Below are positions 29,127 through 29,350 of a DNA stretch of 64,000 nt, piece after piece (position 1 is the first letter of the stretch; every line of letters starts with the position of its first letter). The stretch comes from a virus (Duplodnaviria; Caudoviricetes). Where the stretch lies: positions 20,471-84,470 of the IMG/VR virus record IMGVR_UViG_2791355311_000001; one strand, 5' to 3'. The notes under the pieces were generated by a model, which did no database searches, was not told the origin of the DNA, and saw only the letters and a list, made by a program, of their open reading frames with translations. The position numbers were made by a program, and so were the translations under genes.

Positions 29127-29350
29127 ACAACATTTATAAAAGTTCTACATTCTCAAATCATACTTTTATAAATTGTTTAAACAATGTAAAATGATGATAA
29201 CTCGCTGTTAATAATTCAAGTGCTTTGACACTGTTGGGAAGATTTTAGCGATTATCATCGTTTTTGTTACTGATTAAAATCTTAGTAAGTTTAATTAAAA
29301 CTCTACTGAATACAAGAAAAGTAACAAGAACTAAATTAAATTTTACATTC
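29127..29350 (+). ncRNA. IS110 bridge RNA (5' hairpin, target-binding loop, donor-binding loop)
   Basis: Stems 29132-43/29162-73, 29183-92/29340-49, 29193-206/29247-59, 29264-71/29320-27; guides TTAAAATCT and ATACAAG match the donor, TGGGAAG matches the target. End positions are approximate. Confidence 0.88.

Follow-up and report, generated by a model that had tools for sequence, protein, structure and literature searches.

The DNA discussed here is a window of 64,000 nucleotides, the whole stretch that was analysed, which corresponds to positions 20,471 to 84,470 of the IMG/VR virus record IMGVR_UViG_2791355311_000001. Positions 29127-29350 of this window very probably encode a bridge RNA, which, together with the neighboring IS110-family recombinase, would serve a coherent 10.7-kb mobile element as its RNA-programmed integrase and excisionase. 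A bridge RNA at this place had been proposed in an earlier note made from the sequence alone; its observation is confirmed, and its interpretation is supported. The evidence read directly from the DNA comprises the RNA structure, the guide-DNA matches and their co-variation, empty and occupied sites, the catalytic columns of the recombinase, and a promoter at the circle junction. The RNA and the recombinase are composed of the following features.

29127 to 29350, plus strand: predicted bridge RNA; start inferred from the -10 box, 3' end predicted; fold z -6.73 and consensus of 23 distinct relatives.
29129 to 29177, plus strand: 5' stem-loop of the fold; a 5' hairpin is present in 23/23 distinct relatives despite differing sequences.
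29193 to 29259, plus strand: target-binding loop domain; outer stem 29193-29207 with 29246-59, inner stem 29219-22 with 29229-32; from fold and covariation.
29208 to 29217, plus strand: left target guide, in the top-strand sense of the left flank; 6/10 to the window's own flank.
29235 to 29241, plus strand: right target guide, 5 nt plus AG (core complement); 7/7 reverse complement of 39847-53.
29242 to 29245, plus strand: handshake-type extension ATTT, complementary to the donor AAAT just 5' of the core; AGATT is invariant in 23/23 distinct relatives.
29260 to 29331, plus strand: donor-binding loop domain; outer stem 29260-71 with 29320-31; from fold and covariation.
29274 to 29282, plus strand: left donor guide TTAAAATCT, identical (9/9) to the right end including the core, 39840-48.
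29310 to 29316, plus strand: right donor guide ATACAAG, 7/7 reverse complement of CTTGTAT at 29111-17; invariant in relatives.
29367 to 30332, plus strand: intact IS110-family recombinase, 321 aa; Pfam DEDD_Tnp_IS110 (PF01548) 4.4e-13 and Transposase_20 (PF02371) 3.4e-20.

The region 29127-29350 lies upstream of the intact recombinase gene at 29367-30332. Its 224 nt fold at -54.8 kcal/mol, compared with -29.9 +/- 3.7 kcal/mol for shuffled sequences, and none of 200 shuffles equalled this value. A 5' hairpin is present, along with a closing stem of 10 bp (29183-92 with 29340-49) and two domains of the stem/internal-loop/stem type; this reproduces the architecture described in the earlier note, and both left guides start 2 nt past their outer stem, as was also described there. 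Every guide string that it had named is present in place. TGGGAAG (29235-41) is the reverse complement of CTTCCCA (39847-53), and TAATAATTC (29209-17) is identical to TGATAATCT (29104-12) at 6/9 positions. The donor loop matches the element ends exactly (9/9 and 7/7), as is the case for the donor guides of an IS621-type RNA. When the 224 nt were shuffled 200,000 times, the three exact guide strings never occurred together, and two strings occurred in 69 shuffles; among 2,534 other 224-nt frames of the window, none had two guide strings. The claim of a 10-nt right target match stands for the guide (7/7) and falls for the rest, as the 23 distinct relatives, which have various targets, all share the extension ATTT. 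The extension is therefore directed at the donor, like the handshake guide of IS621, and does not add target specificity.

Relatives of the element were assigned to the genus Campylobacter from the names attached to homologous proteins. Recombinase orthologues (~61% identity) were found in 31 of 142 genomes of the genus. From these, 29 loci were fetched and 28 were analysed; L055 (G120), which is without the exact right-donor-guide motif, was dropped from all counts, and L026 was left out of the guide/flank comparison owing to its short flank. Alignment of the upstream regions revealed invariant donor-loop guides, and both target-loop guides varied by locus. Guides were scored against flanks in 23 distinct flank/guide combinations, with a 10-nt left guide and a 5-nt right guide. 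Between the left target guide and its own left flank, a mean of 9.09/10 positions matched (at least 9 in 19/23), compared with a mean of 5.74 for the flanks of other loci (at least 9 in 12/486). The right target guide matched its own right flank at a mean of 4.35/5 (perfect in 10/17), compared with 1.61 for the flanks of other loci (perfect in 3/353). Two loci, L022 and L058, have a common right flank, AGGTCTCG, and different left flanks, and their left target guides differ correspondingly. Clustering of the 27 loci whose left flank is long enough gave 19 flank clusters, and this co-variation of guide and flank across about 19 insertion loci belongs to the decisive, comparative evidence for the bridge RNA, as do the recurrent ends, the empty and occupied sites, and the compensatory stem changes.

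The stems show co-variation of their own. RNAalifold on the 23 distinct RNAs gave 23 pairs in five helices, of which two are target-loop outer helices, one is the target-loop inner helix, and two are the outer and inner helices of the donor loop. In these helices, 97.2% of cells are paired, compared with 39.8-49.1% when the partners are slid. Compensatory change on both sides was found in 13 of the 23 pairs (1-7 when slid), and 0 of 500 shuffles reached the observed values. The closing helix is present in the minimum-energy fold of 19/24. The layout proposed earlier, with left and right target guides and left and right donor guides (LTG/RTG/LDG/RDG), holds together with the strand sense of each guide, and is backed by the flank-tracking relatives, the empty sites described below, and the compensatory stem changes. 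The structured leader could also be explained as only a cis-regulatory RNA for recombinase expression, in which the guide-like matches are due to chance. The ribosome-binding site and start codon are paired with the 5' region in the minimum-energy structure of several relatives, and regulation may be an added role of the RNA. However, no shuffle in 200,000 gives the three matches, the variable loop positions follow the flanks of each locus, the stems co-vary, and the donor guides are fixed, which makes a purely regulatory leader scarcely credible.

The protein partner of the bridge RNA aligns over its full length with the recombinases of ISCro4 (1.3e-19) and IS621 (9.7e-17), and conserves the catalytic D, E, D, D, and S columns; the roles of these residues in the IS621 recombinase are described in PMC11208158. 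No match to the window recombinase was found in the genome-contig collection, and the insertion sequence (IS) DNA of the window had no match among phages.

The unit that the RNA and recombinase would move is delimited by the following features.

29113 to 39848, plus strand: mobile element, 10,736 bp, from TGTATGA... to ...TATCTTAAAATCT; the right-end core CT is at 39847-48.
29103 to 29112, plus strand: left target (LT) with core CT (29111-12), at the left junction, on the C-terminal side of the split portal gene.
39850 to 41265, minus strand: portal gene of the host prophage, N-terminal 472 codons; Pfam SU10_portal 4.9e-16.
28907 to 29110, minus strand: C-terminal 67 codons, the other piece of the same prophage portal gene.
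39828 to 39833, plus strand: -35 box TTGACA, in the right end.
29115 to 29120, plus strand: -10 box TATGAT; in the circle it stands 17 nt from TTGACA, and the promoter is formed only across the junction of the right end (RE) and left end (LE).

Both ends recur in the relatives. In 21/28 loci, a 13-nt right end lies at a distance of 9,661-11,161 bp from TGTATGA, the left end, and both ends are present in 22/28; the remaining six have decayed or run into a contig end. Among 16 metagenome or viral loci, eight more full-length copies of 10,465-10,595 bp were found. The left flank of one locus, L027, is present in 101/142 genomes, and of the 30 best loci for this site 24 are empty and 6 are occupied. 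The empty site consists of the left flank joined directly to the right flank of the occupied loci, which sets the boundaries exactly at TGTATGA... and ...AAAATCT. Comparison of empty and occupied sites revealed no duplication beyond the core, so the insertion is scarless. At this site the target core is TT; after insertion, TT stays at the left junction and the donor CT is at the right, where the right-end pattern required CT and a TT junction would escape detection. Left flanks end in T in 28/28 loci (TT, CT, or AT), which gives T as the second core base. In IS621, the cores TT, AT, and GT are tolerated and the second T is almost invariant (PMC11208160, PMC11208158). The unlike junction cores fit this tolerance together with a top-strand cut 3' of the core; they would also fit integration by top-strand exchange, possibly of a single-stranded circle from rolling-circle replication. 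The 10.7-kb unit of the earlier note thus holds, with mobilisation of more than 10 kb suggested by the distribution of copies and no circle observed.

Several observations concern individual copies. In L121, a metagenome contig, the left junction reads target half, TT, CT, element, so that both cores are apparently kept, unlike in all other copies. L068 (G121:C1, oriented 1268-3313) has the same ends only 2,046 bp apart; it retains only the RNA, the recombinase, a helix-turn-helix (HTH) gene, a holin-like gene, and an M15 peptidase, its guides fit their flanks poorly (6/10, 3/5), and it is a deletion derivative. L059 and L060 (both G092:C1) are two full-length copies with the same guides, 95.3% identical over 96% of their length; L060 fits its left guide only (right 3/5) and looks like a half-match insertion. 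Outside the window, G000:C1:573092-573650 holds a decayed second copy with the RNA and the first ~128 recombinase codons, in which there are 8 stops; it has 71% DNA identity, different target-loop guides, and a lost left end. Also outside the window, stretches of 52-97 nt near 814475, 490772, and 714829 of G000:C1 are 72-87% identical to the hairpin region 29133-29184 and may be remnants of further left ends. No tRNA gene was found as a target at the 15 loci examined.

A second exact TTAAAATCT is present at 30337-45, 5 nt past the recombinase stop and inside the small HTH gene. It could act as a second possible right end, with a mini-circle of 1,233 bp as the product; no -35 box lies upstream of it. 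This raises the alternative of an ordinary 1.2-kb IS (29113-30345) that lies on the left border of an independent 9.5-kb element with another means of mobilisation, since the estimated chance of an exact 9-nt right-end copy at this place is only ~2 in 1,000 (12 occurrences in 128,000 positions). However, the inner copy lies within a conserved gene, is absent in 7/8 relatives (L002-L009), and is followed by GTGC and not by portal sequence; L006 has AAAATCT ~130 nt past the stop. The outer end with its -35 box is conserved in 22 loci, the empty sites show that the whole ~10.6 kb was inserted as a unit, and Pfam and PHROGs revealed no further integrase in the 17 cargo open reading frames (ORFs). 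A separate short IS is thus very improbable, and the inner copy was rejected as the true right end on the lack of a -35 box, its absence from most relatives, and the ~10.6 kb given by the empty sites.

The preferred mechanism for the 10.7-kb element begins with circularisation, in which the right end would be joined to the left end. The circle junction would assemble a sigma-70-type promoter (TTGACA, 17 nt, TATGAT) that drives the RNA from about 29127. The pattern TTGAC(A/T), 17 nt, TATGAT is found across the junction in 22/22 loci with both ends, of which 21 right ends were found by the 13-nt pattern, which did not demand TTGAC, and the looser right-end pattern did. A scan of the integrated left end revealed no promoter better than chance. 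A promoter that exists only at the junction, with none in the integrated state, indicates that transcription of the RNA should follow circularisation and start near 29127. The donor loop would then pair with the circle junction and the target loop with a chromosomal site, and the recombinase would exchange strands just 3' of the two-base core, which has T in its second position. That circles form, that the RNA is transcribed and bound by the recombinase, and that recombination is catalysed is only inferred from these features.

Several results weigh against a programmed bridge system of this kind. An Rfam 15 scan of 28000-41000 at E up to 1 gave no relevant match and two chance-level matches to eukaryotic families. 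No circle junction was seen in the 16 metagenome or viral loci, and sequencing reads gave only pieces of 225-300 nt identical to the window, with no joints, and are uninformative on circles and empty sites. The relatives are kin, and counts over them overstate their independence. The left donor guide of most relatives has five A's compared with four in the right end (A1 columns 197-206), and contiguous donor pairing in most relatives is 7 nt compared with 9/9 in the window copy. The 6/10 fit of the window left target guide to its flank is tied for the lowest of the 23 distinct loci, and in the register of most relatives it falls to about 4/10 (hand alignment). Lastly, the handshake extension pairs also with the target's own AAT; in IS621, pairing of this extension with the cognate target inhibits strand exchange (PMC11208160, PMC11208158).

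The last two points concern the portal site itself. The minus-strand portal ORF ends at a stop three codons inside the element. The two window pieces were translated separately and compared with intact portal homologues in open frames of 505-559 aa from other species. In 7/11 intact homologues, the two matches are separated by exactly one codon, the codon cut by the insertion, so the gene was split without loss; in the remaining 4/11 the C-terminal match begins further in or is spurious. Among the relatives, all well-matched copies except L052 lie beside frames of at most 70 codons. The window copy, L025, L023, and L060 fit poorly and split or abut longer open frames; the exceptions are L052, which fits well yet splits a gene, and L068, which fits poorly without splitting one. 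A search of the element's own genome for a site with at least 9/10 to the left guide and a perfect right half found none. Given the weak left fit, the disruption of longer frames among poor fits, and the lack of a better genomic site, the portal insertion looks from these comparisons like a half-matched, off-target event. Half-matched off-target insertion is described for IS621 in a 2026 preprint. Drift after insertion may also have caused the poor left match.

The portal could instead be the true programmed target, with a left guide that tolerates 3-4 mismatches or a one-base bulge and an element aimed at resident prophages. The right target guide and extension do match the site over 10-11 nt, 7/9 left-guide positions pair when one U is bulged (hand alignment), and no genomic site exceeds 8/10 alongside a perfect right half. 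Nevertheless, the fit to the left flank is at least 9/10 in 19/23 distinct relatives, and well-matched relatives lie mostly beside short frames, with the longer ones split by the poor fits. Moreover, the site predicted by the guide in the family register would place a stop codon in the portal frame, and the insertion site is not conserved at the DNA level among portal homologues. A programmed portal target is therefore rather unlikely. The portal-target guides of the earlier note are accordingly upheld on the right (7/7) and not on the left (6/10), and the programmed target is probably another site.

The cargo between recombinase and right end contains the following features.

30298 to 39796, plus strand: 17 same-strand cargo ORFs, with gene order conserved in relatives.
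31266 to 32714, plus strand: putative Rep_trans-like initiator, 482 aa, from a structure model; top 6 PDB matches are rolling-circle initiators.
39222 to 39452, plus strand: one-transmembrane (one-TM) protein, 76 aa.
39455 to 39796, plus strand: M15 peptidase; Peptidase_M15_4 3.9e-9, endolysin PHROGs.

The conserved order is a small HTH-like protein, a 146-aa protein, the 482-aa protein, conserved unknowns, the one-TM 76-aa protein, and the M15 peptidase. The model of the 482-aa protein (pLDDT 70.9) has its top 6 PDB matches in 4cwc, 4cwe, and 4cij (E 2.8e-7 to 3.6e-5, TM 0.46-0.52 by target). By sequence, PF02486 (Rep_trans) was found in 0 of 24 family members at E up to 0.1, the Rep-like profile had no match among PDB sequences, and the Rep-like protein had none in plasmids and phages. 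Neither a capsid, nor a packaging ATPase, nor a Walker A motif was found in the 17 cargo ORFs with Pfam, PHROGs, and a motif scan, and the ESM Atlas contained no usable match to the cargo proteins of 253 aa and 118 aa. The conserved Rep-like and lysis-type cargo, with no capsid or packaging gene found, leads to the model-based description of the element as a putative rolling-circle replicon with lysis-type genes. It is possible, though somewhat short of probable, that these elements form an undescribed family of ~10.5-kb rolling-circle, lysis-gene-bearing Campylobacter replicons, either a small virus or a satellite. Such a family would have adopted a bridge recombinase as its RNA-programmed integrase and naturally redirected the target loop to at least a dozen chromosomal sites.

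Other properties of the cargo were also observed. The G+C content of the element is 27.3%, compared with 32.4% in the rest of the window. Its sole long non-coding gap (37760-38496, 737 nt) is pyrimidine-rich on the plus strand and has a GC-rich hairpin. Two aromatic-rich ORFs, 33709-34374 (221 aa) and 36659-37387 (242 aa), have no tblastn counterpart in the element of any relative. The genes neighboring both are 40-66% identical, and the aromatic-rich positions evolve fast.

Bridge recombinases are under development as tools for the insertion of large DNA, and a fixed, conserved 10-kb payload shows that the chemistry works at such size in the wild. The relatives provide a natural reprogramming series, in which one recombinase lineage with a constant donor loop has at least ten target loops with known chromosomal sites. 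Together with the empty sites and the apparent half-match misfires, this series is material for guide rules on register, non-CT cores, and mismatch tolerance. The results also suggest that small replicons in Campylobacter use RNA-guided recombinases for their integration and that a resident prophage can be knocked out by an element of this type.

The IS621 donor presumably also ends in CT-TGTAT, as the earlier note states; no such string is present in the text of the IS621 paper.

The bridge RNA and recombinase of IS621 and ISCro4 (Durrant 2024, PMC11208160; Hiraizumi 2024, PMC11208158; PDB 8wt6, 9t56) are the closest known systems for comparison. As in these, the RNA of the window occupies non-coding DNA at the left end, immediately before a recombinase with DEDD and Tnp domains, and has a 5' hairpin followed by target and donor loops. 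As in IS621 (PMC11208160), the left guides have the top-strand sense and pair with the bottom strand, and the right guides are reverse complements that pair with the top strand, with the core included. The second core base T, the handshake extension after the right target guide, and the catalytic columns are likewise shared. The target loop of the family behaves as in IS621, and that of the window copy does so at 7/7 on the right and only 6/10 on the left. In contrast, the protein is only distantly related (E 1e-17 to 1e-19), and the RNA has ~224 nt with a closing stem around both loops, compared with 177 nt in IS621. Most relatives insert at TT or AT cores with a donor core CT; the left junction keeps the target core and the right junction the donor core. 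The unit is 10.7 kb of conserved genes, compared with about 1.3 kb. A canonical IS110 insertion sequence of about 1.0-1.6 kb carries the RNA and recombinase only, whereas the window element has 10,736 bp and 17 further ORFs.

Large cargo-bearing IS110 elements, far above 1.5 kb, are already known from Hu et al. (bioRxiv 10.64898/2026.08.14.744561, August 2026), in which a 9,177-bp circle was recovered experimentally. Their target guides are also complementary to the flanks, and half-matches occur at the boundaries. However, the loci described there are progressive accretions of mostly plasmid-derived DNA enriched in resistance genes, whereas the window family has a single conserved syntenic gene set (Rep-like, lysis-type, and unknown) of about 10.5 kb across species. 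The main text of Hu et al. contains none of the words 'Campylobacter', 'virus', 'prophage', or 'satellite'.

IS110-family transposases are also already known as integrases of filamentous prophages, since 2005, in Neisseria (Nf/MDA) and Thermus (phiOH16/Zuza) (PMC7058167, PMC11437467). These prophages are similarly ~8-10 kb rolling-circle replicons with an initiator, an IS110-family gene at one end, and short CT-containing sites. They differ in the Zot/pI-type ATPase of Nf-like prophages, which was not found in the window cargo (Pfam, PHROGs; no Walker A in 17 ORFs), and in the M15 peptidase and holin-like gene, which the window element has. The available text of PMC11437467 uses 'bridge RNA' 0 times, and the portions of PMC7058167 and PMC11437467 covered mention no bridge RNA for their phages.

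At the level of titles and abstract openings, neither a bridge RNA from Campylobacter nor one that guides integration of a phage-like replicon was found in the literature; the family may be listed in the supplements of Durrant 2024 and Hu 2026. Within the literature covered, the conserved virus-like payload, the natural series of re-aimed target loops with empty sites, and the unlike-core junctions seem to be new. By every feature that could be tested, the RNA is a canonical IS110-group bridge RNA, and the part that differs is the unit moved.
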